This document shows positions 7,225 to 23,096 of a DNA stretch of 35,847 nt, in pieces. The DNA is from Patescibacteria group bacterium (GTDB taxonomy: Bacteria; Patescibacteriota; Minisyncoccia; Minisyncoccales; UBA10102), in assembly GCA_024239055.1 (NCBI GenBank), contig JANBVJ010000001.1, positions 259,277 to 295,123 on the forward strand, written 5' to 3'. The notes below the pieces were generated by a model. It saw only the letters and a list, made by a program, of their open reading frames with translations. It was not told where the DNA came from and did no database searches. How positions within the stretch are numbered: the stretch's first letter is position 1; every line of letters begins with the position of its first letter. A program made the translations under genes and the position numbers.

Positions 7225-7492
7225 ACTTCACAAGAAGAACAATTCCCAAAAGAAGTATTACCCAGAATCCAAAGAAATAACCTGAGAATATATCCAAGAG
7301 CACTCCACCTACAATTGCATACCAGAAGCTCTTTATATCCCCAGATGCCTCAAAAAAGGCATAAAGAAAAATAAATCCAAAGATAAGATTAGGCACTATT
7401 CCAAAAATAGAAATATGGACAAGAAATGTTGTCTGAAAAATAATCAGAATGAGAAAAAGAATAAATATGAGAAAATTCTTTAACATAATCAA
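7181..7492 (-). CDS. mreD: short MreD-like membrane protein
   Basis: Hydrophobic, with PNL and GGVLLDIFSG motifs; lies between mreC and pbp2. Confidence 0.75.
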   Translation of the reverse strand: MIMLKNFLIFILFLILIIFQTTFLVHISIFGIVPNLIFGFIFLYAFFEASGDIKSFWYAIVGGVLLDIFSGYFFGFWVILLLGIVLLVKFVIKSYVRPPILQR

Positions 7493-8295
7493 AAAATAGA
7501 ACTTGGAACGTCATAATTTGTAATAACAAGCAGCACATTATACAAGCTGATATTAAAAGAAGGCTCTAGTACTGCTCGCTGAAATGGCTCAACATCTGAT
7601 GTAATAGCTTCAGTAACCTTACCTACAAGAAAATTCCTGGGAAATATACCTCCTAACTCATAGGTAGATACTATATCTCCCTGTTGAATAACCGCATCCT
7701 GCGGAAGAAGTTCTATTATAGCTTGAAACTTCCCTCTTCCTTTTAATACTCCCCCAATTCTATCTTCTCCTACCACTACATCAACTGAGCTTTGCGTATG
7801 AGAAAGAAGACGGACTCTTGAAAATTCACCAATAACCTCCTCAATTCTTCCAACGGCAATCTTCTCTGATGTAATAACGGGCATCCCCTCTTTTACCCCG
7901 GTACCCGAACGAATAACTAATACATCTTGAGTGGGGTCTTTGAAAAGAATCTCACCCTCTACAAACGTATAATCTTCCTCTAAACCAAATGCAAGAGCTT
8001 CCCTAAGTTTTTCATTTTCCTTTTGTATGCTTTCCAACTCACCAATCTTCTGTTCTAATTCTGCATTTTCAAGTAATAGACGCTCATTCTCTGTTTTTAG
8101 CCTTCCTGCATCAAATACCTCTTTACCTGCATCTGAAAAGGAATCTCCTATTTTCCATAAAGCAGACTGAGATGAAGCAAAAATATTCCATACTGTACCT
8201 CTGATTGGATTTTCAATCACATTGAGTGAGATGATTACCAAGAGCACAATAAAAAGGACTGTACGAGACCTTCTTGAAAATAGAACTTTTATCAT
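7489..8295 (-). CDS. mreC: rod shape-determining protein MreC
   Basis: TM anchor, coiled coil (ENERL...ENEKLREAL), GGIFP..VGKV. Confidence 0.92.
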   Translation of the reverse strand: MIKVLFSRRSRTVLFIVLLVIISLNVIENPIRGTVWNIFASSQSALWKIGDSFSDAGKEVFDAGRLKTENERLLLENAELEQKIGELESIQKENEKLREALAFGLEEDYTFVEGEILFKDPTQDVLVIRSGTGVKEGMPVITSEKIAVGRIEEVIGEFSRVRLLSHTQSSVDVVVGEDRIGGVLKGRGKFQAIIELLPQDAVIQQGDIVSTYELGGIFPRNFLVGKVTEAITSDVEPFQRAVLEPSFNISLYNVLLVITNYDVPSSIF

Positions 8296-8301
8296 TTATT
8301 C

Positions 8302-8352
8302 ATTATACGGCTCTACTTACCTCTTGACAACAAATGCATAATAATATAACAT
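8302..8352. promoter_or_regulatory. overlapping divergent sigma70 promoters (mreC and candidate RNA-1)
   Basis: Minus strand: TTGTCA-17-TATAAT (8330-8302), 6 nt before the mreC ATG. Plus strand: TTGACA (8324)-17-TAACAT (8347). Confidence 0.65.
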
Positions 8353-8354
8353 AA

Positions 8355-8645
8355 GGGGCATCTTGGACACTTAGAAACATGTGTCTGGGTGGTGCTCAGT
8401 CAGTGGGGGTATATCAGATGTGCTCTCAGAAAAAGACTAGTCAACGCGGAGGATTTGGTAATAACCTGGAATTAGCTACCGGGTTCAGAAGTACGCCCGT
8501 TTCCGGCAAAATGGTCCGGGATTAAGATTCTGGAGGGGTTCAATAAGACCCTAAAAGGTTCTAGGGCAACGGAATACCAGATCAATGCGCCACAGCCCGT
8601 ACTGGGTATTGGGGTTACAACTGAATAACCCACTTGGCTGACACC
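8355..8645 (+). ncRNA. candidate structured RNA-1 (~290 nt, family unknown)
   Basis: Promoter upstream and terminator downstream. 5' hairpin 8356-8397. Long-range AGTCAGTGGG/CCCACTTGGCT and GATTTGGTA/TACCAGATC pairings plus several inner hairpins. No convincing ORF. Confidence 0.55.
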
Positions 8646-8661
8646 AAAAAGCTCTTTCCTC

Positions 8662-8693
8662 GACGGTACCCCTTCTGGATACCGTCTTTTTTT
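8662..8693 (+). terminator. intrinsic terminator
   Basis: GACGGTA..TACCGTC followed by T7. Confidence 0.8.
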
Positions 8694-8795
8694 ATGAAAA
8701 GAAAAACCGATGGGTTTAATCATCGGTCTTCAAAATAAGCATCTCTTTGCTAGCTACATGAATATATAGATATAGCTAAAAAGTCAATATATCTA

Positions 8796-8824
8796 TTGAC
8801 AAGTAAAGGAAATAATGATAGTCT
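8796..8824 (+). promoter_or_regulatory. sigma70 promoter of candidate RNA-2
   Basis: TTGACA-17-TAGTCT with TGn extension; predicted +1 at about 8831 is the first base of the closing stem. Confidence 0.75.
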
Positions 8825-8830
8825 ATTTAT

Positions 8831-9021
8831 AGGGTGTTTGGGGGTAGGTCTTTGCTTACAATTGCTTGCGCTGCAAGTTCGGGCGGCGATATCCCCGGAC
8901 AGGATATCTCATTAGTGTGACCAAGTCATACGTGCAGCACTCCTGTAGATTAAGGTACAAACGCCTCCGTACCTATTCCGCTGGATAAGCTAAATACGTA
9001 GAGATCTCCCCCAAATACCCT
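8831..9021 (+). ncRNA. candidate structured RNA-2 (~191 nt; 6S-sized but branched)
   Basis: ~24-bp terminal stem AGGGTGTTTGGGGG(T)AGGTCTTTGC / GTAGAGATCTCCCCCAAATACCCT with G-U pairs, enclosing a junction with four hairpins; own promoter and terminator. Confidence 0.7.
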
Positions 9022-9022
9022 T

Positions 9023-9066
9023 AAAAAACGCCGCAGTACAATAATTGTACCCTGGCGTATTTTTTT
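9023..9066 (+). terminator. intrinsic terminator after RNA-2
   Basis: ACGCC..GTACAAT-A-ATTGTAC..GGCGT followed by a T tract. Confidence 0.7.
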
Positions 9067-9070
9067 ACAT

Positions 9071-9106
9071 AAACAAAAAGCACCCAAATAAATGGGTGTT
9101 TTTGTT
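9071..9106 (-). terminator. rrn (23S-5S) terminator
   Basis: Minus strand AAACACCCA..TGGGTGCTTTTTGTTT directly after the 5S. Confidence 0.75.
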
Positions 9107-9117
9107 CATCATAGACA

Positions 9118-9230
9118 CTGTAAGAGAGCTACCTACTTTCGCCCGTAAAGACTATCATCGGCCTTGAGAATTTTCACTTCCGAGTTCGGAATGGGATCGG
9201 GTGGAGCACTCTCAGCATAGCTCCCCTACG
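9118..9230 (-). rRNA. rrf: 5S rRNA (ends approximate)
   Basis: CCCATTCCGAACTCGGAAGTGAA, GCCGATGATAGT, GAAAGTAGG; flanking processing stem 9105-9244. Confidence 0.95.
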
Positions 9231-9552
9231 GTATCTATGATGAAATATCAAACGTCTGCTATAAATTGTTAGCTAATATATTGAAGGGAAGATCATTAGT
9301 ACTCCTCAGCTTAATGCGTTACCGCACTTACACTTAGAGCCTATCAACCTTGTAATCTTCAAGGGATCTAAAAGTTCTTATCTTGGAGTTGGCTTCGTGC
9401 TTAGATGCTTTCAGCACTTATCCATTCCCGACGTAGCTACTCAGCAATGCTCTTGGCAGAACAACTGATACACCAGAGGTCAGTTCATTCCGGTCCTCTC
9501 GTACTAGGAACAAATCTCCTCAAAACTCAACGCCTACGGTAGATAGGGACCA

Positions 9553-9596
<44 letters not shown>

Positions 9597-9657
9597 TTGG
9601 CGAACAGCCAAACCCTTGGAAGCTGCTTCACCTCCAGGATGTGATGAGCCGACATCG

Positions 9658-9955
9658 CTTTGTCGACATTTTGCCCTCGTTACCGAGGGGATCGGACTAT
9701 ATCTTCATCCTCTAAAATCTAAGAGGCGTCGGCGTATTAGCTCTACTTAATAAATAGAACTCCGATTCTTACGAATCAAGTCTCTACAGGGTTATAACTT
9801 AATATGCAACAAACTACATACGATTTTTCAATTAAGTTAAACTTCCCACGGTATTGTCCAGATGTATCTGGTAATACATTTCCTGGAGTTCACCGTTATA
9901 AGCCGAATTTTTCTTGATGACATTACTGTCATGGCGCCCCGATGTATATTACATA
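9658..9955 (-). mobile_element. group I intron (298 nt, no ORF) inserted after U2500 (E. coli numbering)
   Basis: Interrupts GGCACCU|CGAUGUCGGC. Exon ends in U and intron ends in G. IGS GGGGCGCC pairs with the 5' exon and ACATCG with the 3' exon. P3 TCGGC/GCCGA; core elements ACGGTGAA, AATACCGTG, GTAGAGACT, GAAGATATAGTCC. Confidence 0.93.
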
Positions 9956-11868
9956 AGGTGCCGAACAGGGCCGTAGATATGGACTCGCGGGCCCTACCAG
10001 CCTGTTATCCCCGGGGTAGCTTTTATCTGATAATCTCCGCGTTTTCTACGAAAACACGTCGGTTCACTAAGTTCTGGTTTCCCAACTGCTCGACATATCC
10101 GTCTCGCAGTAAAGCTAGCTTGTGCCTTTACACTATCTCCACCATTTCCATCGGCGGATAGCTAACCTTTAAACGCCTCCGTTACCTTTTAGGAGGCAAG
10201 CGCCCCACTTAAACTGTCCACCTCCCACTGTCATTCGCTGAGCGAAATTAGTGCTATCTTCGTAAAAGATGGGTGTTTCATTGATGGCTCCACTAAGACC
10301 GAAATCTTAGCTTCAAAGCCTCCCCACTACGCTACGCATCTAAAAAAATAGAACAATGAGAAGCTACAGTAAAGCTCCCGGGGTCTTTCCGTCTAGCCGC
10401 AGGTAACCGGCATCTTCACCGGTATTGCATTTTCACCGAGCACCTCCTCGAGACAGTTCTCCAGTCGTTACGCCTTTCATGCAGGCCTGAACTTACCAGG
10501 CAAGAGATTACGCTACTTTAACACGGTTATAGTTACCGCGGACGTTCACTGGGGCTTCGACCGCTCAGCCTTCAGATAAATCCAAAGACCGGCAGTTTTA
10601 ACACTCCAGCACTGGTCAGGCGTCAGCCCCTATACATACTTTTACAAGTTGAGCAGGGACCTGTGTTTTTGATAAACAGTCGCCAGAGAAACAGTCGCTG
10701 CGGCCCTAATATTAATTAGGGCAGTCCTTATCCCGAAGTTACGGACACTGATTTGCCGAGTTCCTTAAGGAGGTTTCACTCGTTCACCTTAGCATATTTG
10801 CGCTAACCTACCTGTGTTGGTTTGCGGTACGGACTCTTTAAGTTATACGTAATAGAGATTTTCTTGGAAGCGTGCTCGTTCGGATTCCTTCTCCCGTGGG
10901 AAAAGATTTCCACCACACTTGGATTGCTCCTTATGCAGCCGACAGAAATCCAATAATCTGCCCGAAGTACTACACTCCGTCATCTACTACAACACTTAAC
11001 GAGGGGCAGGAATATTAACCTGCTGTCCATCGCTTCAGACCTTTCGGTTCAAAAGCTTAGGCCCGCCTAACCCTTGGATGATCACCATTGCCAAGGAAAC
11101 CTTAGGTTTTCGGTGTGCAGGGCTCTCACCTGCATTGCGGTTACTCATGCCAACATTCTCACTTCTCATCGCTCCACAAGAGGTCACCCTCCAGCTTCAA
11201 CGCAATAAGAACGCTCTCCTACCACTCCTGAGATAAATCTCAGAAATCCTTATCTTCGGTATTTAACTTAAGCCCCGATAAATCTTCGGCGCAAAACCTC
11301 TGAACTAGTAAGCTGTTACGCACTTTTTAAAGGGTAGCTGCTTCTAAGCTAACCTCCTAGCTATCTGAGAAGTTTCACCTCCTTTCTTAGCACTGAGTTA
11401 AAATTTAGGGACCTTAGATGAAGGTCTGGGCTGTTTCCCTTTTGAACATGGAGCTTAGCCCCCACATTCTGACTGACTATGCTAGTCACTCTAGTATTCG
11501 GAGTTTGGTAAGAATACCTAGCTTGCGCCACGAGAATCCTTTCCAGTGCTCTACCCCCAGAGTGTTGTTCATAATCGCTAGCCCTAAAGCTATTTCGGAG
11601 AGAACCAGCTATTACCAAGCTCGATTAGCTTTTCACTTCTTACCACAGCTCATCCCAAGACGTTGAACGGTCTACGGGTTCGGACCTCCCTTTGCCTTTC
11701 GGTAAAGTTCATCCTGGCCATGGCAAGCTCGCTTGGCTTCGGGTCTTCTCCCATCGATTTTAATTCGCCCTATTAAGACTTGGTTTCCCTATGCCTTCGC
11801 GCCGTAAGCGCTTTAGCAACCGATGAGAAAAACTCGTTGGCTCGTTCTGCAAAAAGCACGCCGTCACC

Positions 11869-12054
11869 CCGCATCTTTTTACTCTTTAAGAAAATATAGT
11901 TGCTGAGAGGCATAGATGTTTCACTTCTAGGCCCAACTAGGATTTGACCAGATGAGCAAGCTCATCTCCCCTCAGCGTTTGGCTCCCCACGACTCAAATC
12001 AGGATCGTTTGGGGACCGCAACATAAACAAAACTTAAAGAACAAAAAGATACGG
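11869..12054 (-). other. intervening sequence or expansion in 23S helix 25 (~186 nt)
   Basis: Replaces the short H25 apex; long basal stem CCGTATCTTTTTGTTCTTTAAG/CTTAAAGAGTAAAAAGATGCGG with a branched top. Confidence 0.85.
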
Positions 12055-12115
12055 AGCTCCGACTCCTTGTAGGCAAGATGGTTTCAGGTACTATTTCACC
12101 GCCCTCAACGGGCTA

Positions 12116-12154
<39 letters not shown>

Positions 12155-12757
12155 AATATTAAGTATTTAGCCTTTCCCGGTAGAACGGGATGATTCCCAC
12201 GAGGCTTTCGTTTCTCGAGGTACTCAAGAATAATAACAAGGAGCATGAAAGAATTTTCAAATACGGGGCTATTACCCTCTATGGCGCCACTTTCCAGAGG
12301 CTTCTCTTAATCAACAATCAACTTGTGCTCTCCCTCAGGGGCATTCTTGTGCGTAAACACAAGAGCACTCCCGACGTTATTACCTTACAACCCCCTATAT
12401 TCCTAAAGAAATGATAGGGTTTGGGCTCTTCCCTTTTCGCTCGCCGCTACTAAGGGAATAAACAATTCGTTCTCTTTTCCTCCGCTTACTGAGATGTTTC
12501 ACTTCAGCGGGTTCGCTTCTGAGCTAACGCTCAGACGATGCTGGTTTCCCAGCAACAGGTTTCCCCATTCGGACATCTCCGGATCAAAGGTTGCTAGCCA
12601 CCTCCCCGAAGCTTTTCGCAGACACGCCACGTCCTTCATCGCCTTAATATTCCGAGGCATCCCCCATCTGCCTGTAACCTACAATATACTAACTAACAAT
12701 CGATAACATTCGTTCGATATTCTATATTTATACCTCTTTTAAGGTTCTCACGAGCAA

Positions 12758-12906: not shown

Positions 12907-13602
12907 CTAATTTGTTATTAAAAATTCACTATTAAAAAGTTCATTTAAGAAGTAACCCGACCATTCTTTATATACATCAGCTTTATGGTTATCTGCGATA
13001 ATATGAAGCAATAATTCAATACATAATGGATTAATTTTTTGAATAATCTTAATATCTTCACCTACATCTTTTTTAAGGTTATATAAACAAAAATCTTTTG
13101 AGAAAGTATCATGCAATTTTACTATATTTTGTACAAATTCAATCTCAGATGCAATTAAATCTGAGCTTTCAAGAAGCTTTGGAACCAATTTCGCTCCTGC
13201 TTGTTCATGTCCCGTAGATTCTGTATTATTTTCTTCATTAATAACATGAAGATATGTGATCCCCTTCTCCTTTTCAACTCCTTTGCCAATATCATGAATA
13301 GCGCTTGCAAGTAATAACAAATCTCCCTTGATATACTTTCCATTTTCATCAACTAACTTATTAAAATATTTCTTATACTTATCTTTTAATTCTAAAGATG
13401 TAATAAAATTAAAATTCAAAAGTTCTTGCATATTAAAAAATACATCTTCCATATGTGAAAGAACATTTTCTGAATCATGATATTCATTATTTTCAATTAA
13501 AGAAGAGAGTCGCTGCATCTCAGGTAATTTAACAACACCATCTATTACTTGAGATAAATCAGAATTAATATCTGAATTTACAATTTCAAAGTTTTTTTTC
13601 AT
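12907..13602 (-). CDS. HD-domain protein (resembles the HD domain of CCA-adding enzymes); start reassigned to MKKNF
   Basis: YH..NVLSH, IHDIGK, GHEQAG, LHD; very AT-rich; TGTTATACT 7 nt upstream of ATG 13602. Confidence 0.8.
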   Translation of the reverse strand: MKKNFEIVNSDINSDLSQVIDGVVKLPEMQRLSSLIENNEYHDSENVLSHMEDVFFNMQELLNFNFITSLELKDKYKKYFNKLVDENGKYIKGDLLLLASAIHDIGKGVEKEKGITYLHVINEENNTESTGHEQAGAKLVPKLLESSDLIASEIEFVQNIVKLHDTFSKDFCLYNLKKDVGEDIKIIQKINPLCIELLLHIIADNHKADVYKEWSGYFLNELFNSEFLITN

Positions 13603-13735
13603 ATATTTAAGTATAACAAAAAATCTAATAAACCATATAGACTTCTTGACAAAATACAAATAATATGTAATGATATGAATCAGATTGTACTTATTGCACC
13701 TAAAAAACTAGTATGCACACGGAGATGATGCATCA

Positions 13736-14239
13736 ATGAATAAGAAAAAAATGGTCCTGATGGCGATTGTAGCCATTGCAGCTATTACTATTGGCACAGG
13801 AATTGCCTTTGCCAGTACACTGGTGACCGACTCGGTAACTATCGACGCCAAAGTTCAAGAGCCGATTGAGATTCTGAACTTCAATCACGAAAATCTTTTC
13901 TCTCCAGGAAAAGATTTCTGGCCTGGAAAGCCAGTAGTGCGATGGACTATGCAACTAAAAAACATAGCCGATGTGCCTTTCAGCGTATTGCCTCGCGTTA
14001 TGAAAAAAGATTCCGAAGGAATCGACATCGTCACGGAGACTTACGCAAACGGTGAGCTTGTCTTAACTCCTTGGGTAGGTACAAGTATTGCCCCAGGAGC
14101 GACAATAACACTCGTTGTTGAAGTCCGCATCAGTCCAACAAGTTCTCCAGGAACAATTGGAGATCTCGTTCTCCAAATAGACCGCTACCTCTCGCCTCCT
14201 GAAGTAGAGGTCGAAGAGAACAAGGGACAGCTCGGCTAG
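13736..14239 (+). CDS. hypothetical exported protein
   Basis: Basic then hydrophobic signal peptide ending AFA; beta-rich body; followed by a terminator. Confidence 0.75.
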   Translation: MNKKKMVLMAIVAIAAITIGTGIAFASTLVTDSVTIDAKVQEPIEILNFNHENLFSPGKDFWPGKPVVRWTMQLKNIADVPFSVLPRVMKKDSEGIDIVTETYANGELVLTPWVGTSIAPGATITLVVEVRISPTSSPGTIGDLVLQIDRYLSPPEVEVEENKGQLG

Positions 14240-14260
14240 TCTGACCAAAAAAATCGAAAT

Positions 14261-14343
14261 CCCCAGAGTATCTACATAGGTATGTCTGGGGTGTTTTTTA
14301 TATAACAAAACTCTGTAGGCATATCACCTACAGAGCATGTTTT
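14261..14343. terminator. pair of convergent terminators
   Basis: CCCCAGA..TCTGGGG followed by a T tract (+); CTCTGTAGG/CCTACAGAG with a T tract on the minus strand. Confidence 0.7.
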
Positions 14344-14361
14344 AGAACAATATTTATTGCT

Positions 14362-15039
14362 CTACCCTCTGAGTTTTCTAATCATATCCTGCAAGAGCAT
14401 AGCTGCCGTATCTTTTCCTCCCAAGCCGAATGCTATTCCACCTGAGATTACAATTAAGGCAACAAGTCCGGTAAAGAGTGTTTGAAGTAATGCTGTAGCT
14501 ACTCCAAGTTGAGTTAACATTGCAATAATTGCAAATATCCAAATGGACCACTTTACCACAGCTCCAACTACTCCTCCGTGAGAAAACTGTGCTGATTCTA
14601 CTGTAGCTCTCATCACCTTCTCTACGATATCGGCAATGATTACTGCTACCGCAAAAATAAGAGCGGCAACAATCACGTTAGGCAAGTAAGCCAATACACT
14701 CTGAAGGAAGATTGCAAATTGGTCTAAACCGAGAATTTCTACTGAAGCAGCTAAGAATACAATAACTAAGACCCATTTTACAATAGATCCAATAAATCCT
14801 GCTGGATCTATTTTCAACTCAGCCTTGTCTAATGCTGACTTCCAGTTTCCCCGTTCAAATATTTGGTTAAAGCGTAGGCGTTTTAATATGTCGGCGATCA
14901 ACTTTCCGAATCCAGCGGAAATTAACCAACCGATAGTAAATACGAGTAGTGCTCCCACCAACTCAGGAATGAAGTTTAAGAAACTCCCCCAGAGATCAAA
15001 CAGGGCGTTCACGGTGACCGCGTACCAGTCAAGTAACAT
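14362..15039 (-). CDS. CmpX/MscS-type TM-helix-repeat membrane protein
   Basis: FIPELVGALL and YLPNVIVAAL repeats, GIAFGLGGKD. Confidence 0.85.
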   Translation of the reverse strand: MLLDWYAVTVNALFDLWGSFLNFIPELVGALLVFTIGWLISAGFGKLIADILKRLRFNQIFERGNWKSALDKAELKIDPAGFIGSIVKWVLVIVFLAASVEILGLDQFAIFLQSVLAYLPNVIVAALIFAVAVIIADIVEKVMRATVESAQFSHGGVVGAVVKWSIWIFAIIAMLTQLGVATALLQTLFTGLVALIVISGGIAFGLGGKDTAAMLLQDMIRKLRG

Positions 15040-15150
15040 ATGTGTTTTGATTATATTTCACTTGTATTAAACCGACCTTTCTGCAAGAGTACCTTTAAAA
15101 TGGTCTCTCAGCATTTCTTCATTATACCAGAATAAAGCAGGTCAAATACC

Positions 15151-15429
15151 TTACTTGTGGATAACTTTTGCGAGGCCCAAAACACTATCTTTGTTAACCC
15201 AACCAAATACTCTACTATCAAGACTTTCTTCCTTATTATCCCCTTTTAACCAATACTTCTTATCTATTTTTTTAATAACGCGCTTAAGTAAAAAACGAGA
15301 AGAAATGGGGTGTCTTATAACAGCAACATCTCCCTCTTTTAAACCAATAAACTTGTTCACGAATACAAAGTCCCCTTCTTTGCAGTAGGGCTCCATGCTT
15401 CGTCCTTGAACTCGAAAGAATAAAATCAT
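15151..15429 (-). CDS. sodX: NiSOD maturation protease (S26 family)
   Basis: GRSMEP catalytic Ser, LKRV Lys, GDN..S.DSR.FG; translationally coupled to sodN. Confidence 0.88.
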   Translation of the reverse strand: MILFFRVQGRSMEPYCKEGDFVFVNKFIGLKEGDVAVIRHPISSRFLLKRVIKKIDKKYWLKGDNKEESLDSRVFGWVNKDSVLGLAKVIHK

Positions 15430-15875
15430 TACTTTGACGAAGCCTTCTCAAACATCTCAGCTATATTCTCTACAGCAGAAAGTAATCCCTTTGCCGTATC
15501 CATACTTACCTCCTGCTTTATTTTTGAACATAACTTAGTAGCTGACCAAAATGTATCATGCAAATCAGGAAATATTTCCAAATGTTCTTTATTAAAGAAA
15601 TCTGTCCAAAGAATAAGTAACTGTTCCTTACAAATCTGAGCATGCTCTTCTTTTGTAGCAACATAGCGAGACATGGAATTTTCATACTCCATCACCACTT
15701 TCTTATCTTTCCAGTCTGGAATCTCTAGTTCTTCAATTAACTCAACCATACGGACAACCGTACGGGCTGCTGTGTGAGCTGGTTCTGAGGTATAAATGCC
15801 ACACGGAATATCACAATGCGCATACACTGTATTAAATGGAATAAGCTTATGGATGAAAGAAATAAAACGATACAT
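15429..15875 (-). CDS. sodN: nickel superoxide dismutase precursor
   Basis: Ni-hook HCDIPCGIY after a leader; LILWTDFF. Confidence 0.95.
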   Translation of the reverse strand: MYRFISFIHKLIPFNTVYAHCDIPCGIYTSEPAHTAARTVVRMVELIEELEIPDWKDKKVVMEYENSMSRYVATKEEHAQICKEQLLILWTDFFNKEHLEIFPDLHDTFWSATKLCSKIKQEVSMDTAKGLLSAVENIAEMFEKASSK

Positions 15876-15887
15876 ACTATTTATATA

Positions 15888-16448
15888 TTACTTATATGTT
15901 GGATGATGTTCCTCACTATGCTTTGTTTTTGCCGCATGACGAGCCATTGCATACAACAAAGAAGACAATCTATTTAAGTAAGCTAAGATTGAAGGCTCCA
16001 ACTTTTTCCTGTGTCGCCTATCTAACTTTACCATAACAACCTCAGCTCTACGAACTACAGAGCGAGCAAAGTCCAACCAAGAGGAAGCTTCATTTGAACC
16101 TGCAATAATAAATCCTTTCTCTGGCTTTACCTTCTTTTCAAATCCATCAATGAGTTTTTCAATTTCCTTAACCTTTTTTAAAGAAAATGGAGGAGCTGTA
16201 AACTTCCTTATCATTAACACTCCTACATGTGCCTGAATAATAAATAGATTCTCCTGTACCTGCTCTAAAATATCTTTATGTCCTTTAGGCAAACTCTGAG
16301 TCTTTACCAATCCCAATAGACTATTAACCTCATCCAAAAATCCAACAGCCTCAATCTCCAAAGAAGTTTTATGTATCTTCTTTCCTTCAATCTCAGAAAC
16401 ACCCTTATCCCCTTTTCCTGTATAAAATAGTCTCTTTAATAAGCTCAT
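15888..16448 (-). CDS. PduO-type ATP:cob(I)alamin adenosyltransferase family protein
   Basis: YTGKGDKG, DEVNS, ARSVVRRAE, YLNRLSS. Confidence 0.9.
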   Translation of the reverse strand: MSLLKRLFYTGKGDKGVSEIEGKKIHKTSLEIEAVGFLDEVNSLLGLVKTQSLPKGHKDILEQVQENLFIIQAHVGVLMIRKFTAPPFSLKKVKEIEKLIDGFEKKVKPEKGFIIAGSNEASSWLDFARSVVRRAEVVMVKLDRRHRKKLEPSILAYLNRLSSLLYAMARHAAKTKHSEEHHPTYK

Positions 16449-16476
16449 ATGATATTAACTTTCTCCACCAGTTTTT

Positions 16477-16962
16477 TTATTTCCCTTGAATTCCTATCAG
16501 TTCTACTTCAAAGTACAATGTTGAATTTGGTGGGATCGCTCCAGGTATTCCTCCAGCTCCATATGCAAGTTCAGGTGCAATAGTAAGATTTCTTACGCCT
16601 CCAATCTGCATTCCAGCTACCCCTTCATCCCAACCCTGAATCACTTGTCCTACTCCCAAAGTAAATGTAAATGGCGTATCCTTTGCTCTTGAAGAATCAA
16701 ATGTAGTTCCATTCTCAAACGTACCAACATAGTGTACCGTAACTTGGTCTCCTGCTTCTGCAGTTGCTCCCTCACCTACTTTTATATCTTCAATTTTAAG
16801 TTTTGTTTCTTGTTCCATATTTTCTTGTGGATTTTCTATAACGACTTGCTGATCTTCTTCTGACTGTTGAGAGGAAAAGAATATAAATCCTCCAACAATA
16901 ACAACAGCTACAATAACTAGTATTAAAACCATACTCAATCCCCTCTCTTTAATATGATGCAT
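16477..16962 (-). CDS. membrane-anchored FKBP-type peptidyl-prolyl isomerase
   Basis: VHYVG, FDSS, VIQGWDEG, IPPNSTL.FEVEL. Confidence 0.95.
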   Translation of the reverse strand: MHHIKERGLSMVLILVIVAVVIVGGFIFFSSQQSEEDQQVVIENPQENMEQETKLKIEDIKVGEGATAEAGDQVTVHYVGTFENGTTFDSSRAKDTPFTFTLGVGQVIQGWDEGVAGMQIGGVRNLTIAPELAYGAGGIPGAIPPNSTLYFEVELIGIQGK

Positions 16963-16999
16963 AGAATAATATGTAATTAATAATTCGTATCTATACTAT

Positions 17000-17122
17000 A
17001 TTCTACCAAAAAACCGCCTTAAAGGCGATCTTTTGCGAAATGTGGACTACATCGGATTCAATTGGAACCAAATAATTCAGGAATTAGGAACCTGGCAGCA
17101 GCTCAGCTCCAATCTTCTCTAA
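17000..17122. repeat. cassette-junction repeat 1
   Basis: TACCAAAAAACCGCC-n5-GGCGAT..GTGGACTACATCGGATTCAATTGGAACCA; plus-strand frame 17042-17122 reads VDYIGFNWNQIIQELGTWQQLSSNLL*. Confidence 0.9.
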
Positions 17123-17650
17123 AAGTAACGGAAAAGTCTGAAATCCTGACTGTGCCTGAAAATGTTCTCCTCCTTTTACTAAAGTTACGTTAACCCCTAG
17201 ATTCTTTGCAAGTTCTTCCGCTCTCCCTAAGGGGATATAAGGGTCGTTATCGGAATGAATTACGGAAAAATGCTTACAATTTTGTTTTATCTTTTTCCAA
17301 TCAAAATCTCTTTCAGCAAAATCATCAAGATTTGGCTCCCCTTCCGCTTTAAGATGTCCTGAAAATCCTGCAACCAAGAAAGTTGCCCGAGCACTTACCT
17401 CCCACTGATTCAAAACATTTAGTATAAATGGTACTCCAAGACTATGACCCACAATAATGGAATCTGATAGGTGTTCTTTCATTGGACGAAGAGTATCCAA
17501 CCAATTCTGAAGAGTCTGTTTATCTTCTTCAATAGGAAACTGTGGTAAGAAAACCTGCAATTCTTTTTCTTCCAGTTTTTCTTTCAACCACGGATACCAA
17601 TGAGTATCTTTACTTCCAGAAGAACCGTGAATAATAAATGCTGTTCTCAT
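17084..17650 (-). CDS. YdeN/RBBP9-family serine hydrolase
   Basis: IIHG..W.PWLK, GHSLG, SDNDPYI, GEHF. Confidence 0.9.
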   Translation of the reverse strand: MRTAFIIHGSSGSKDTHWYPWLKEKLEEKELQVFLPQFPIEEDKQTLQNWLDTLRPMKEHLSDSIIVGHSLGVPFILNVLNQWEVSARATFLVAGFSGHLKAEGEPNLDDFAERDFDWKKIKQNCKHFSVIHSDNDPYIPLGRAEELAKNLGVNVTLVKGGEHFQAQSGFQTFPLLLEKIGAELLPGS

Positions 17651-17662
17651 ACACTTTATGAT

Positions 17663-18238
17663 TCAGTACTCTTCATTTTCTACTTCTTTTGGAAATAATA
17701 ATTGAAATGGATAACCTACATAGTTCCTGTTTATTTTCCCGCAGCCAATATCTTTAAGAAATGCAACCATTTCTTCTGTAATCTTTTTAGGATCTACATT
17801 TTCATCCTTACCTTTGTACTCAATTTCTACAAAATCTCCAAGTCCTTTTATCGTATCTAATGCAATCTCATAATCTTCATGCATCCATGTTTTCCTTAAT
17901 TTATCAACTATAACGATTGATTTAAAATTAAGAACGTCTAGTATCTTCTTTAATTTACTTAAATCCCCTATCTCCGTCTCATATTCGTCAGCATAGTTGC
18001 TTTTTCCATCTTCTTCATAGTGCCAGTTCTTATAATTTATTGAGTATGTACCGCCTGAATCTCTTAGCCGTATCCACTCTTTTATTGGACGAACCTCAAT
18101 AAAATTACGATGAGCCGGAGAAAAATACTCATCTACTTGATGTTTTTCCGATTGAAAGTCAGCATTCTTTTCCAAAAACTCAATGAGTGGTTTACTGTTC
18201 TCAATCCTAACTTGTATTTCAATTTCAATATCAGACAT
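17663..18238 (-). CDS. CYTH-domain (class IV adenylate cyclase-like) protein
   Basis: EIEIQ, Q.DEYF, IRLR, LGDFVEIE. Confidence 0.9.
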   Translation of the reverse strand: MSDIEIEIQVRIENSKPLIEFLEKNADFQSEKHQVDEYFSPAHRNFIEVRPIKEWIRLRDSGGTYSINYKNWHYEEDGKSNYADEYETEIGDLSKLKKILDVLNFKSIVIVDKLRKTWMHEDYEIALDTIKGLGDFVEIEYKGKDENVDPKKITEEMVAFLKDIGCGKINRNYVGYPFQLLFPKEVENEEY

Positions 18239-18245
18239 ATATCTT

Positions 18246-18373
18246 ACTATACCAAAAAACCGCCCTTATGGCGATATTTTGTTTTTGTGGACTACATCGG
18301 ATTTAGTTGGAACCAGATTATAGAGGAATTGTTGGCTTGGAAGGGTTACGCAGACTTAGAGAACAGGACCTAA
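18246..18373. repeat. cassette-junction repeat 2
   Basis: Same module; frame 18287-18373 reads VDYIGFSWNQIIEELLAWKGYADLENRT*. Confidence 0.9.
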
Positions 18374-18393
18374 ATCTTAAACACATTACTGAC

Positions 18394-19017
18394 TCACAAA
18401 TTATCTAATACTGAGGGTAATTCAGATAACCCATCATCCCCACTAAAATGCCCTTTGCCAGTTTCAATTATAATTTTTGCATTGAGTTCCTTCTCAAATA
18501 ACTCTTTATTCTCTTCAAATGGAACAAGAGGATCGTCTTCCGAAAAGATACAAGTGAAGCTTTCTGCGGCGTTCTTTATTCTTCTAAAATCTATAGAAGT
18601 TTCTATCCAGGGTCTTGCAATAGATTTAGATTCTTCATCTGACATCGCTTCTAAAGTAAGAGTCATCCAAGGAGCAACAAGAACGACACTCCCTACTTTA
18701 CTATACGATAAAGATTTTTCTCTATATTTCTTCCCCACAGCCTCAAAATATGGGAGCTTCTGACTAATGGATTCTAAATATCGTAGCACAGTCTGACAAC
18801 CTACGCTGTGTCCAACAAAATGTGTATTTTCATCTGGGTACTTTATTTCATCTTTAAGTAACCCAACCCAGTCCACAATAGTTGGGTTCTCTGGATGGGG
18901 CATTGTAAAAATAGATACCTCAAAATCTCTACTCTCTAATTCCTGTTTTAGCCAAGGAAACCATCCCTCTTCTGGATAGCCATCCCACCCGTGAACAACA
19001 TAAACTCTTTGCTTCAT
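18394..19017 (-). CDS. YdeN/RBBP9-family serine hydrolase (second homolog); start reassigned to MKQRV
   Basis: VHGW..WFPWLK, GHSVG, SEDDPLV, GHF. Confidence 0.9.
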   Translation of the reverse strand: MKQRVYVVHGWDGYPEEGWFPWLKQELESRDFEVSIFTMPHPENPTIVDWVGLLKDEIKYPDENTHFVGHSVGCQTVLRYLESISQKLPYFEAVGKKYREKSLSYSKVGSVVLVAPWMTLTLEAMSDEESKSIARPWIETSIDFRRIKNAAESFTCIFSEDDPLVPFEENKELFEKELNAKIIIETGKGHFSGDDGLSELPSVLDNL

Positions 19018-19025
19018 ATAATCAC

Positions 19026-19133
19026 ACTGTACCAAAAAATCGCCTGCTTGGCGATTCTCTGGTGTTTGTGACCAAATCGGAATCTGTTGGAACCAATTAG
19101 TAAAATCTCTTAAAGAATACGATGAACTAATGT
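19026..19133. repeat. cassette-junction repeat 3 (1-nt deletion in the core)
   Basis: TACCAAAAAATCGCC-n5-GGCGAT..GTGACCAAATCGGAATCTGTTGGAACCA; frame reads DQIGICWNQLVKSLKEYDEL. Confidence 0.85.
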
Positions 19134-19487
19134 CTATTTCTTCACAATGTTGTTCTCAGAATCCTTATGGTCATATTTCACAAGGATTTCATCCTTTACC
19201 ATATTGAATGCCTCCTCGACATCAACATCAAGTTGATTTGCGAGACGGCAGAGTCCAAAAAACAAATCTCCAATACCATCTACAAAAATATCTTTATTCT
19301 GTTTAACAAATTGAATCCTTTCCTCCTCTGATTTATATCTCAGGTGCTGTGACATTTCTATAAGTTCCTCGTGTAAATGATCGAACTTATCAACATTAGG
19401 AATATCTTTCCATGCGTTACGTTCAGCAAAAAACTGCACAAGAGCCTGTGATTCTTTCATTGTCTCTATTGTTTTCTTTACATCCAT
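19134..19487 (-). CDS. MazG-like all-alpha NTP pyrophosphohydrolase
   Basis: FFAERNAW, HLHEELIE, GIGDL...LANQLDVD. Confidence 0.75.
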   Translation of the reverse strand: MDVKKTIETMKESQALVQFFAERNAWKDIPNVDKFDHLHEELIEMSQHLRYKSEEERIQFVKQNKDIFVDGIGDLFFGLCRLANQLDVDVEEAFNMVKDEILVKYDHKDSENNIVKK

Positions 19488-19509
19488 AAAACTATCTTAC
19501 CAAAAAACT

Positions 19510-19929
19510 TTACTCGCCAAGAAATCTTTTAAAAGCCTGATACTCTTCCATATCACAAAAGTCACTTCTCTTGAGTCGATCATCTACAGATGCCCAAAAG
19601 TAGCTGCTGTGCTCTGGAGAAAGTTTGATACTCCCTGATATGTACTTCCCCTCATATACAATAACAAACACTGGGACTTTACGATTAGCAGATTTACGAT
19701 AGTGAGCAGCAATGGGTTTCCCAATTTTATACTTCACTTTACTCCCCAATTCTTCTTTTACCTCCCGGATCAATATTTTCTCAAGCGGAATATCACCTTC
19801 AATGTTATCAATACGGCCACCCGGTAAATCCAAATGGTCGTCTTTTGTATTTCTCAAAAATAAAAACTTCTTATCTCTTTCCAAAAGTATTTTTAAGGAG
19901 ACCTGGTACTTTTCAAAATCACGGTTCAT
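19510..19929 (-). CDS. NUDIX hydrolase (start 19929 or 19938)
   Basis: LPGGRI..REVKEELG Nudix box; LSPEH. Confidence 0.9.
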   Translation of the reverse strand: MNRDFEKYQVSLKILLERDKKFLFLRNTKDDHLDLPGGRIDNIEGDIPLEKILIREVKEELGSKVKYKIGKPIAAHYRKSANRKVPVFVIVYEGKYISGSIKLSPEHSSYFWASVDDRLKRSDFCDMEEYQAFKRFLGE

Positions 19930-19936
19930 CTTTATC

Positions 19937-20061
19937 ATTCTACCAAAAAACCGCCATTATGGCGATATTTTGTTTTTGTGGACCAAATCGGATTCAGTTG
20001 GAACCAGATTATTGCAGAGCTACAACTCTTCCAAGATCTTGGTTCTTTCACTTATACATAA
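19937..20061. repeat. cassette-junction repeat 4
   Basis: Same module; frame 19978-20061 reads VDQIGFSWNQIIAELQLFQDLGSFTYT*. Confidence 0.9.
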
Positions 20062-20117
20062 ATTACCTTATCAAAAAAGCAAAGGAATCTTTCTTTTCGC
20101 ATTGGAGTGATAGAATT

Positions 20118-20429
20118 TTAAAAAGAGTCAATCATACTTACTCCAAAAGAAACAGGAACAATATTCCTTGGTGGATCAGGAATACTTGGATTTTCTGGAG
20201 CTGTTTTTGGTGTTCGAGAAACTGGAGAAAGAGCAAATCTATCCCTTATTATAAATTTATTCATATCTTTATCATTAGCTATAACTCCTCGAAAATTTCC
20301 TTCGGAATCCCAAACTGTATTACCGTCAACCCAACCTAAATAAACGCCATCTCTTGAAAACACAAAACCACCCTCGATAAACCCCAAGTAATTTCCGTTT
20401 GTTTTGAATATAAATATTATATTACCCAT
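20118..20429 (-). CDS. small beta-repeat protein (4-fold beta-flower-like)
   Basis: Repeated F/W-x-x-x-G-x-Y/F-L-G-F/W units with a Pro-rich tail; overlaps the protease gene. Confidence 0.65.
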   Translation of the reverse strand: MGNIIFIFKTNGNYLGFIEGGFVFSRDGVYLGWVDGNTVWDSEGNFRGVIANDKDMNKFIIRDRFALSPVSRTPKTAPENPSIPDPPRNIVPVSFGVSMIDSF

Positions 20430-21105
20430 TCTTTTCTTCTTCTAAAGTTTTATGCTCAGGAATATAAGAAGCTGGTACTGCATATCCAACGCCAAGTTGC
20501 AGATTTCTTATCAGCGCGGTGTAAATTTCGACAACATCTACTCCGTGTAGGGATAATGCACCAAACTCCATATCTTCTACCTTTTTTAAAATTTTACCCC
20601 TCTCTCTTCCTGTCGCATTAACAACACCTATTACCTCGCCATCTGAATTCATTAAAGGACATCCACTGTTTCCAAGATTAACCGTGCCATCGATAAGATA
20701 TGTAACTACTCCTACTGCATCTTTAGTTATAGCAGAGAGTATGCCTTGATGAGTTATAGGAATTTTAGAATTTAGTGGATACCCAGAAAATACCACTGGC
20801 ATTCCTTCTTTAACTACCGAAACATCCGCAAGTATAAGTGGTTCTATTGTATCATCTTCAAATTTTAAAAGGGCAAGATCGTGCTCATCATCTCGAACTA
20901 CTACTTTTGCATTAATATATTCCCCTTCTGGAAACTTAATGAGAAGAGACTCAGCTCCTCTAACTACGTGATTACAAGTAACTAAAACTCCTTTTTTAGA
21001 AAATACAAAACCTGTACCAGTTCCAGAACTTTTTCCTTTTTTGTTTATAGTAACAACGAGTGCAATACTTGACCTTGTCTTATTTACGGCATTGGAGCAA
21101 TCCAT
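20422..21105 (-). CDS. trypsin-like serine protease (no signal peptide or PDZ domain)
   Basis: TCNHV, DLALL and GNSG catalytic triad. Confidence 0.92.
   Translation of the reverse strand: MDCSNAVNKTRSSIALVVTINKKGKSSGTGTGFVFSKKGVLVTCNHVVRGAESLLIKFPEGEYINAKVVVRDDEHDLALLKFEDDTIEPLILADVSVVKEGMPVVFSGYPLNSKIPITHQGILSAITKDAVGVVTYLIDGTVNLGNSGCPLMNSDGEVIGVVNATGRERGKILKKVEDMEFGALSLHGVDVVEIYTALIRNLQLGVGYAVPASYIPEHKTLEEEKNG

Positions 21106-21606: not shown

Positions 21607-23096
<1,490 letters not shown>

Follow-up and report, generated by a model that had tools for sequence, protein, structure and literature searches.

The + strand of positions 8796-9066 in a 35,847-nucleotide (nt) stretch of Patescibacteria DNA (hereafter the window, meaning the whole stretch analysed) probably carries the gene of a stand-alone, lineage-restricted structured small RNA (sRNA) of an orphan class, whose function we infer from the sequence only. 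The window corresponds to C1:259277-295123 of the 1.08-Mb genome, in 47 contigs, of an uncultivated marine bacterium (G000; completeness 97.3%), and the genomes of its relatives range from 0.3 to 0.9 Mb. We give about an even chance to the fuller reading, namely that this unit encodes a highly structured noncoding RNA (ncRNA) that acts in trans and lies outside the families of Rfam. The unit folds stably and with a bias toward one strand, and its fold is bracketed by promoter- and terminator-like signals of the type used for the 6S-like RNA of this genome.

An earlier inspection of the letters by a model (the sequence-only reading) had proposed a TTGACA-17-TAGTCT promoter with a start at about 8831, at the foot of a long stem. 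We found both sites on the + strand (8796-8824), with the −35 hexamer TTGACA at 8796-8801, a 17-nt spacer, and the −10 hexamer TAGTCT at 8819-8824. A TG one base before the −10 hexamer (TGATAGTCT) creates an extended −10 element, TGaTAGTCT, at 8816-8824. The predicted +1 falls at 8831 ± 1, which is the first base of the closing stem. A search of the 35.8-kb window with the pattern TTGACA-N14-TGNTANNNT returned this match alone, against 0.05 expected, and at least one match was obtained in 5 of 100 shuffles. A plain consensus promoter scan missed the promoter because TAGTCT fits TATAAT at only three of six positions. Contig C1 carries 23 promoters of the TTGACA/TGnTAnnnT type, one of which heads the 6S-like RNA of the genome. 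Adjoining the −35 hexamer, a perfect 9-bp inverted repeat (ATAGATATA / TATATCTAT, 13-nt spacer; 8766-8796, strand not assigned) may, by its sequence, represent an operator.

The other end of the unit is marked by an intrinsic terminator (T2; 9028-9066, + strand), in which a hairpin at 9028-9058 is followed by a U7 run (AUUUUUUU) to 9066. It starts 6 nt past the last base of the closing stem; the sequence-only reading had also given the unit a terminator of its own. T2 could work in both directions, because its hairpin is preceded by an A-run. Consistent with the claim that the region is noncoding, neither strand of 8796-9066 holds an open reading frame of more than 40 amino acids. The promoter, the noncoding folded body and the intrinsic terminator are all on one strand, as in a generic stand-alone sRNA.

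To assess the stability of the predicted fold, minimum free energies (MFEs) were compared with those of 200 shuffled sequences. The core on the + strand (8828-9024) has an MFE of −80.2 kcal/mol, and shuffled sequences average −53.6 (sd 4.55); the z-score is −5.84 and none of the 200 was as stable. The same core on the minus strand reaches −68.5 (z −4.19), leaving the + strand more stable by 11.7 kcal/mol. For the whole predicted transcript, terminator included (8831-9068, + strand), the MFE is −94.0 with a z-score of −7.30, and again none of the 200 shuffles was as stable. The assignment to the + strand made by the sequence-only reading on account of G-U pairs is borne out by the closing stem, in which all four non-Watson-Crick pairs (8836/9016, 8848/9005, 8852/9001 and 8854/8999) are G-U on this strand and would therefore be A-C mismatches on the minus strand.

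The MFE of 8828-9024(+) contains every helix that had been picked out by eye, namely a 24-bp stem, a GGCGG/CCGCT helix and four hairpins. The structured core spans 191 nt of the + strand (8831-9021). Its closing stem, P1, consists of a 5' strand at 8831-8855, which forms 24 pairs with the 3' strand at 8998-9021 and leaves U8845 bulged. Above P1 lies an internal loop, or bubble, with its 5' strand (UUACAAUU) at 8856-8863, opposite 8991-8997. It is followed by a hairpin at 8864-8878 that the sequence-only reading did not name (H0; GCUUGC-GCU-GCAAGU) and by the 5' strand of the junction-closing helix at 8879-8886 (UC, then GGCGG), which pairs with 8978-8985; within this helix, the GGCGG/CCGCT pairs join 8882-8886 with 8978-8982. 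The junction then carries hairpins H1 (GAUAUCC/GGAUAUC, 8888-8908), H2 (GUGUGAC-CAA-GUCAUAC, 8915-8931), H3 (UGCAG-CACUC-CUGUA, 8933-8947) and H4 (AGGUAC, loop AAACGCCUCC, GUACCU; 8953-8974), all on the + strand.

We then asked whether the unit belongs to a known RNA family, using the 4227 families of Rfam 15 on the whole window at gathering scores and on the locus 8700-9120 at E ≤ 10. At gathering scores, the matches in the window are rRNAs, tRNAs and a group I intron, with none on 8796-9066; at E ≤ 10, the locus yields noise far under the family cut-offs. The orphan status assigned by the sequence-only reading, which a strong match would have ended, thus stands. Its remark that it saw no features of a signal recognition particle (SRP) RNA, RNase P RNA or tmRNA agrees with the lack of a family match here and with copies elsewhere in the genome (SRP RNA at C16:308-564, RNase P RNA at C1:317091-317455 and tmRNA at C1:430062-430420).

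Five further element classes were considered and none was supported. For a bacterial Y RNA (YrlA), the partner domain PF05731 (TROVE/Rsr/Ro60) has no match in this 97.3%-complete genome, and no Y-RNA family matches. An omega-RNA or reRNA (HEARO) was set aside with no match to PF07282 genome-wide (IscB-specific domains were not searched separately) and none to HEARO; the neighbours of the locus are the 5S rRNA gene and mreC, not a TnpB or IscB nuclease. In the case of a retron msr-msd RNA, the unit is followed by two terminators and a converging 5S gene rather than by a reverse transcriptase, and RVT_1 matches in the genome are confined to contig C31 and C1:540318-540923, the latter about 270 kb away. 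A miniature inverted-repeat transposable element is not indicated, as the genome holds a single copy (by BLAST and by the covariance model R1 described below) and no flanking direct repeat was found. A riboswitch or other cis-regulatory leader is likewise not indicated, since the next genes past the terminator (5S and 23S) are on the opposite strand. As an observation in its own right, C1:540318-540923 (minus strand) is a 326-codon frame with a reverse-transcriptase domain (40.2 bits), which could encode an enzyme of retron or diversity-generating-retroelement type and is by its position unrelated to the RNA at 8796-9066.

Comparative evidence comes from metagenomic sequencing runs. In a public marine-sediment run (X1) the locus is identical; this run may be the source of the assembly and is not independent evidence. 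Two other runs, X3 and X4, contained nothing matching the stretch. A diverged homologue was found in a marine metagenome from another study (X2), in which the uncovered parts of the stretch were left uninterpreted. A 387-nt contig of this run aligns to 8761-9084 with 27 substitutions and 20 gap letters, or about 86% identity. Also from X2 come a near-identical piece of 151 nt on 9021-9112, a further piece, on 8564-8649, and three short pieces of mreC.

The homologue matches this genome exactly at both promoter hexamers, at positions 8804-8843 and in the first 14 pairs of the closing stem. Six of nine substitutions at paired positions keep the pair. Three of them are in the closing stem, at 8848, 8850 and 8852 (G-U to A-U, C-G to U-G and U-G to C-G), where the pairs are kept on the + strand only; two keep H2 (A-U to G-U and G-U to G-C); the sixth is U-A to U-G. 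All four transversions lie in loops or in a remodelled H1. Three inserted letters widen the existing bulge of the closing stem, and of the inserted letters the five that are listed fall at the bulge and in strands of junctions or loops. H4 retains its core (8954-8958/8969-8973) with a loop two letters shorter, and H3 and H4 have each lost a terminal pair. A block of 27 nt, 8934-8960, is without change.

The interior fares differently. Nine of 13 deleted letters fall on paired positions of the MFE of G000, mainly in H1 and the junction-closing helix, and the latter is rearranged by deletions on both of its strands. In the MFE of the homologue and in the two-sequence consensus, the RNA becomes a long rod ending in two arms, with no 5-way junction, and 8864-8868 pair with 8986-8990 in the consensus in place of H0. 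The branched junction of the sequence-only reading accordingly holds for the MFE of this genome's sequence, whereas the homologue favours a two-armed interior. Its AT-rich bubble is likewise open in the MFE here and closed in the only homologue, where 8857-8860 pair with 8993-8996 at probabilities of 0.68-0.91, as compared with 0-0.43 in this genome, because of changes at 8993, 8994 and 8996 on the 3' side.

Several of these results weigh against a conserved structured RNA. Only one homologue is known; its contig has a depth of 3.3, and two inserted letters remain unplaced in the reconstruction. H1 is lost in it: one strand lacks CC, the other GG, and the G-C pair that closed the hairpin is gone. 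The interior fold is not shared, and the consensus energy of −64.9 is 15 kcal/mol worse than the MFE of −80.2 here. In a permutation test that kept the types of substitution, 3 broken pairs were observed against 5.1 expected (p 0.14), and with H1 left out 2 against 2.86 (p 0.38); the corresponding values on the minus strand were p 0.24 and 0.25. There is no double-sided compensatory change in the one homologue, and covariation is not significant, so the check by covariation that the sequence-only reading had proposed does not establish a conserved structure. The identity of about 86% is close to that of the few mreC pieces in X2, with no extra constraint on the sequence evident. In addition, the −10 hexamer without its TG is weak (3/6). 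Taken as a sequence comparison, the homologue is compatible with the closing stem and two hairpins and favours the + strand, which does not amount to proof of a conserved structure.

The distribution of the unit was examined among relatives. BLAST of 8790-9070 against 60 relatives gave only matches of at most 35 nt with E ≥ 0.01. R1, a single-sequence covariance model of the RNA at 8796-9066, found no copy in 35 family, 150 order and 150 class genomes. As a control of sensitivity, a single-sequence model of the genome's own 6S-like RNA (R3) was built in the same way; of the 32 relatives that are known to have this 6S-like RNA it recovered 11, indicating that a family-wide RNA of similar conservation would have been seen. 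Within this genome the unit is single-copy by BLAST and by R1. No match was obtained when 8296-9119 was compared by blastn with phage and plasmid collections. An MreC bait in metagenome contigs gave 590 pattern matches, of which none was confirmed, and exact-pattern scans of metagenome, viral and genome contigs found none; a 19-mer match in a Chryseobacterium contig among the genome contigs was dismissed as chance, R1 scoring 1.5 bits there. At the level of titles and abstracts, the literature search returned no such RNA from Patescibacteria or the candidate phyla radiation.

This absence from relatives is explained by synteny. Among the 35 family relatives, 5S was located in 22, MreC in 27 and both in 22, and 5S adjoins mreC in 20. 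Measured from 5S to where the MreC match begins, the gap amounts to 57-149 nt in 16 of these 20 and to 186-406 nt in the other four, as compared with 824 nt here. Because the gap is short in most relatives, the unit, judged by its sequence context, lies in a lineage-specific insert of about 740 nt. R1 applied to the relatives' 5S-mreC loci detected only their 5S genes (4-16 bits).

The location within an insert raises the alternative that the DNA is a relic, in which an inverted repeat (8826-8844 / 9008-9026 and inward) left by a mobile or recombined element produces the fold, the sites resembling a promoter and a terminator are there by chance or as leftovers, and no functional RNA is made. 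The unusual length of the gap fits such debris, as do the unrelated sequences that other genera hold at the 5S-mreC junction, the lack of homologues in the family, order and class genomes, the non-significant covariation and a divergence like that of the neighbouring DNA. Other features are harder to account for as debris. The unit is single-copy without sign of mobility, and the long stem has four wobbles that all point to the same strand. Exactly 7 nt ahead of this stem comes a promoter with a perfect −35 and an extended −10, and a terminator stands right behind the stem; the homologue preserves the two hexamers and the first 14 pairs of the stem without change. Small hairpins outside the inverted repeat also contribute to the z-score. 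On balance, we consider relic DNA possible but unlikely.

Alternatively, the insert might act only in cis, as an insulator that keeps read-through from the very strong rRNA operon out of the leaderless mreC-mreD-PBP2 operon, by stacked terminators and by transcription fired head-on at the rRNA genes, with the RNA itself having no role. Between 5S and the mreC promoter there are four terminator-like hairpins (9081-9098, 9028-9058, 8702-8731 and 8662-8686) and two + strand promoters, all of them opposed to the flanking genes, and the promoter of a second orphan RNA in the insert (Y, see below) shares its −35 with that of mreC. Yet a spacing of 57-149 nt between 5S and mreC is enough for 16 of 20 relatives, and an insulator needs neither a 191-nt core with multiple hairpins nor G-U pairs biased to one strand. 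These considerations make an insulator improbable.

The size of the RNA, its closing stem and its bubble had reminded the sequence-only reading of 6S RNA, and we therefore searched for 6S in this genome and its relatives. RF00013 at E ≤ 10 has no match on 8700-9120 and none anywhere in the genome (cut-off 46.4 bits). Sub-threshold matches to RF00013 (18.6-42.7 bits) were present in 7 of the 35 family relatives. These seven sequences of about 140 nt align well and were used to build a covariance model, R2. It found one copy each in 32 of the 35 relatives and one in this genome at C1:87968-88103(+), with 43.7 bits and an E value of 2.8e-8. The loci of this family (L089-L120 and L126) are about 140 nt long, and their best Rfam 6S score, 42.7 bits, is under the cut-off. 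In an alignment of 32 rows, one of which is a weak reverse-strand match, 32 of 38 pairs have double-sided changes, and none of 500 shuffles reached the observed score. The copy in this genome has its own TTGACA / TGATAAAAT promoter and a terminator. As the R2 family covaries and matches here, the 6S-like RNA of the genome is accounted for by C1:87968-88103. A literature search at the level of titles and abstracts did not find 6S RNA in the candidate phyla radiation.

By contrast, R2 scores the RNA at 8796-9066 at 5.3 bits at best, and the role of one housekeeping copy across relatives is filled by the R2 RNA, not by this unit. A 6S label for 8796-9066 is wrong and is rejected, together with the likeness to 6S that the sequence-only reading had drawn; its own reservation, that the branched apex is unlike 6S, is upheld, the apex being branched in both fold models. 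A second 6S-like RNA, sequestering RNA polymerase as a mimic of an open promoter, would still agree with the length of about 190 nt, the long closing stem, the position of the internal loop (25-33 nt from the 5' end when this genome's sequence is folded) and the failure of RF00013 to find a 6S in the genome. It is very improbable given the family-wide 6S-like RNA already present, the scores on the unit, and a loop that is closed by four pairs in the homologue.

We regard as comparably remote a conditional terminator, in which the core would decide whether T2 forms and read-through would yield RNA antisense to 5S and 23S rRNA. It is suggested by a near-duplication (12/14, 86% identical) between the 5' half of T2, 9026-9039, and the loop and 3' stem of H4, 8959-8972, either of which could pair with the 3' half of T2; by inspection, the change of 9033 from G to U in the homologue makes the two copies more alike. 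The whole proposal rests on this single 14-nt repeat, however, no ligand-pocket family matches, the competing pairing is long-range and kinetically disfavoured, and a second terminator (9081-9098) stands behind T2.

A leaderless mRNA for a 28-residue peptide is hardly credible: the organism uses leaderless mRNAs (mreC), its 16S rRNA is without the anti-Shine-Dalgarno motif and a GTG lies at 8834, 3 nt past the predicted +1, but this start is GTG rather than ATG and is buried in the 24-bp stem, and, by inspection, the homologue loses the stop (8920 A to G) and has −2 and −1 deletions that interrupt the frame by shifting it over about 20 nt.

Returning to a trans-acting structured sRNA, we propose the following mechanism. 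An RNA polymerase with a sigma-70-type factor would start at about 8831 from the extended −10 promoter, and transcription would end near 9066 at the hairpin-U7 terminator, as judged from these signals. The predicted product of about 236 nt would comprise the 191-nt core and the terminator hairpin. In the folding predictions, and compatibly with the one homologue, the 24-bp stem with its G-U pairs joins the core's 5' and 3' ends. This stem would most likely protect the RNA by clamping it and would display an apical domain made up of small hairpins, and the RNA may work in trans, as a small RNA with a regulatory or protein-binding role. The likeliest contact surface would be the invariant block 8934-8960, which includes H3 with its loop CACUC, the linker GAUUA and the 5' strand of H4. 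In other bacteria, C/U-rich loops would suggest masking of ribosome-binding sites. This may not apply here because the 16S rRNA has no anti-Shine-Dalgarno motif and mreC is leaderless.

The 3' end of this 16S rRNA (21607-21625, minus strand) reads GGAUCACAACAUUU and is without the CCUCC motif. According to a published study (PMC9297842), a subgroup of the Parcubacteria has lost the anti-Shine-Dalgarno motif.

The insert holds a second orphan structured RNA, Y, whose unit occupies 8324-8695 on the + strand, with a TTGACA-17-TAACAT promoter at 8324-8352 and a terminator hairpin at 8662-8686 followed by U7. Its body of about 335 nt (8355-8695) has a z-score of −3.73 on the + strand and −0.45 on the minus strand. 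Y matches no Rfam family, and a search of 60 genomes gave no relative except for one 25-nt match at E 1e-3; the piece on 8564-8649 in run X2 comes from a diverged relative of it. The two orphan RNAs do not appear to be duplicates, as their global alignment scored 139 against 125.2 ± 7.8 for shuffles, which is not significant, and their likeness is limited to the promoter context (8318/8790) and the terminator tails (8683/9056). Neither is pairing between them indicated, 71 and 86 of 200 shuffles being as good. The Y promoter and the mreC promoter (8330-8302, minus strand) diverge from an overlapping −35, which reads TTGACAA on the + strand and TTGTCAA on the minus one; because they share it, the two may compete for polymerase.

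A further possible transcript lies between Y and the unit at 8796-9066. On the minus strand of 8702-8784, a −35-like hexamer, TTGACT (8784-8779), diverges from the promoter of the unit and a terminator-like hairpin is found at 8731-8702, which may end a short transcript of about 55 nt. Rfam gave only noise driven by the terminator for this segment.

Both genes that flank the insert are on the minus strand, with the 5S rRNA gene at 9120-9228 on one side and mreC at 7489-8295 on the other. The hairpin at 9081-9098 (minus strand) is the terminator (T1) of the converging 5S gene. Beyond 5S, also on the minus strand, is a 23S rRNA gene of 3412 nt (9276-12687) that contains a group I intron (9673-9976), and more long insertions are visible in its Rfam alignment. 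The leaderless arrangement of mreC consists of TATAAT, 6 nt and then ATG; after it, on the minus strand, come the gene of a PBP2-type transpeptidase and then greA. About 8.2 kb of ordinary protein genes (12907-21105, minus strand) split the rRNA operon into 16S-tRNAIle-tRNAAla and 23S-5S. Among their products are a trypsin-like peptidase, NUDIX and CYTH proteins, two serine hydrolases, an FKBP, a cobalamin adenosyltransferase, a Ni superoxide dismutase, a signal peptidase fragment, a mechanosensitive channel and an HD protein. Elsewhere in the bin, contig C4 carries a second tmRNA (85.7 bits) and an adjoining second RNase P RNA (81.8 bits) at C4:3313-4944, and this contig probably belongs to another organism.

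Two relatives of another genus also have very strongly folding elements of 320-400 nt at the 5S-mreC junction. The element of G024 (L037:1609-1989) has z-scores of −7.86 on the strand of the rRNA genes and −4.58 on the opposite strand, and that of G003 (L031:1609-2014) has −6.78 and −6.82, respectively. Rfam has no match for either element, and they resemble neither each other nor the insert described here.

A broader reading, to which we give little credence, is that the unit and Y are RNA-only cassettes, each made of a promoter, a structured RNA, a terminator and a counter-terminator, and that, in this family of ultra-small bacteria, unrelated and strongly folded RNAs repeatedly land or originate at the 5S-mreC junction, as with the differing elements found there in genera such as that of G024 and G003. 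If true, this would be an undescribed route by which reduced genomes gain or exchange structured RNA genes, with regulatory, anti-phage or host-interaction functions for the RNAs. To our knowledge, bacteria of the candidate phyla radiation have genomes of about 1 Mb with few recognisable regulators, and almost nothing is known of their ncRNAs. A heavily folded RNA with a strong promoter outside the 4227 Rfam families would extend the orphan set of this genome, together with Y and the 6S-like family, and would mark the 5S-mreC junction as a site of turnover of structured RNAs. Its practical value is modest at present: it provides a clean candidate with predicted ends, from which the tempting 6S label has been removed.

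Finally, we compared the RNA with known systems. It is like 6S RNA and the 6S-like RNA of its own family in its length (about 190 nt), in being driven by a strong promoter of its own, of the same type, and ended by an intrinsic terminator, and in that its two ends join in a long closing stem, with an internal loop near the 5' third. It differs from them in having no RF00013 match and only 5.3 bits with R2, in a loop that is not conserved and a branched apex, and in not being found in the 35 family genomes. Hfq-independent bacteria possess trans-acting sRNAs that end in a terminator and expose C/U-rich loops of the RsaE or RNAIII type. Like these, the RNA is a noncoding, lineage-restricted, stand-alone unit from promoter to terminator, with conserved C/U-rich loops (CACUC in H3 and CGCCUCC in H4). 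In contrast to them, it is far more base-paired and is clamped by a 24-bp terminal stem, and it resides in a host whose 16S rRNA lacks the anti-Shine-Dalgarno motif, so that masking of ribosome-binding sites may not be its mode of action.

YrlA, the bacterial Y RNA to which the Ro60 orthologue Rsr binds, has a long bulged stem made of its paired ends and a multi-branched cap. The RNA at 8796-9066 resembles it in a long bulged stem formed by its ends and a multi-branched module on top, and departs from it in that the genome has no TROVE/Rsr gene, there is no Y-RNA match and no T-loop-like hairpin is evident. The orphan structured RNAs of bacteria, such as the raiA motif RNA and other motifs from the Breaker laboratory, form the last group for comparison. 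Our RNA has no similarity to them in sequence or by model, and it is known from only two sequences, which do not establish its structure by covariation; what it has in common with raiA-type RNAs is a strong fold, a promoter and terminator of its own, and the absence of a known partner.

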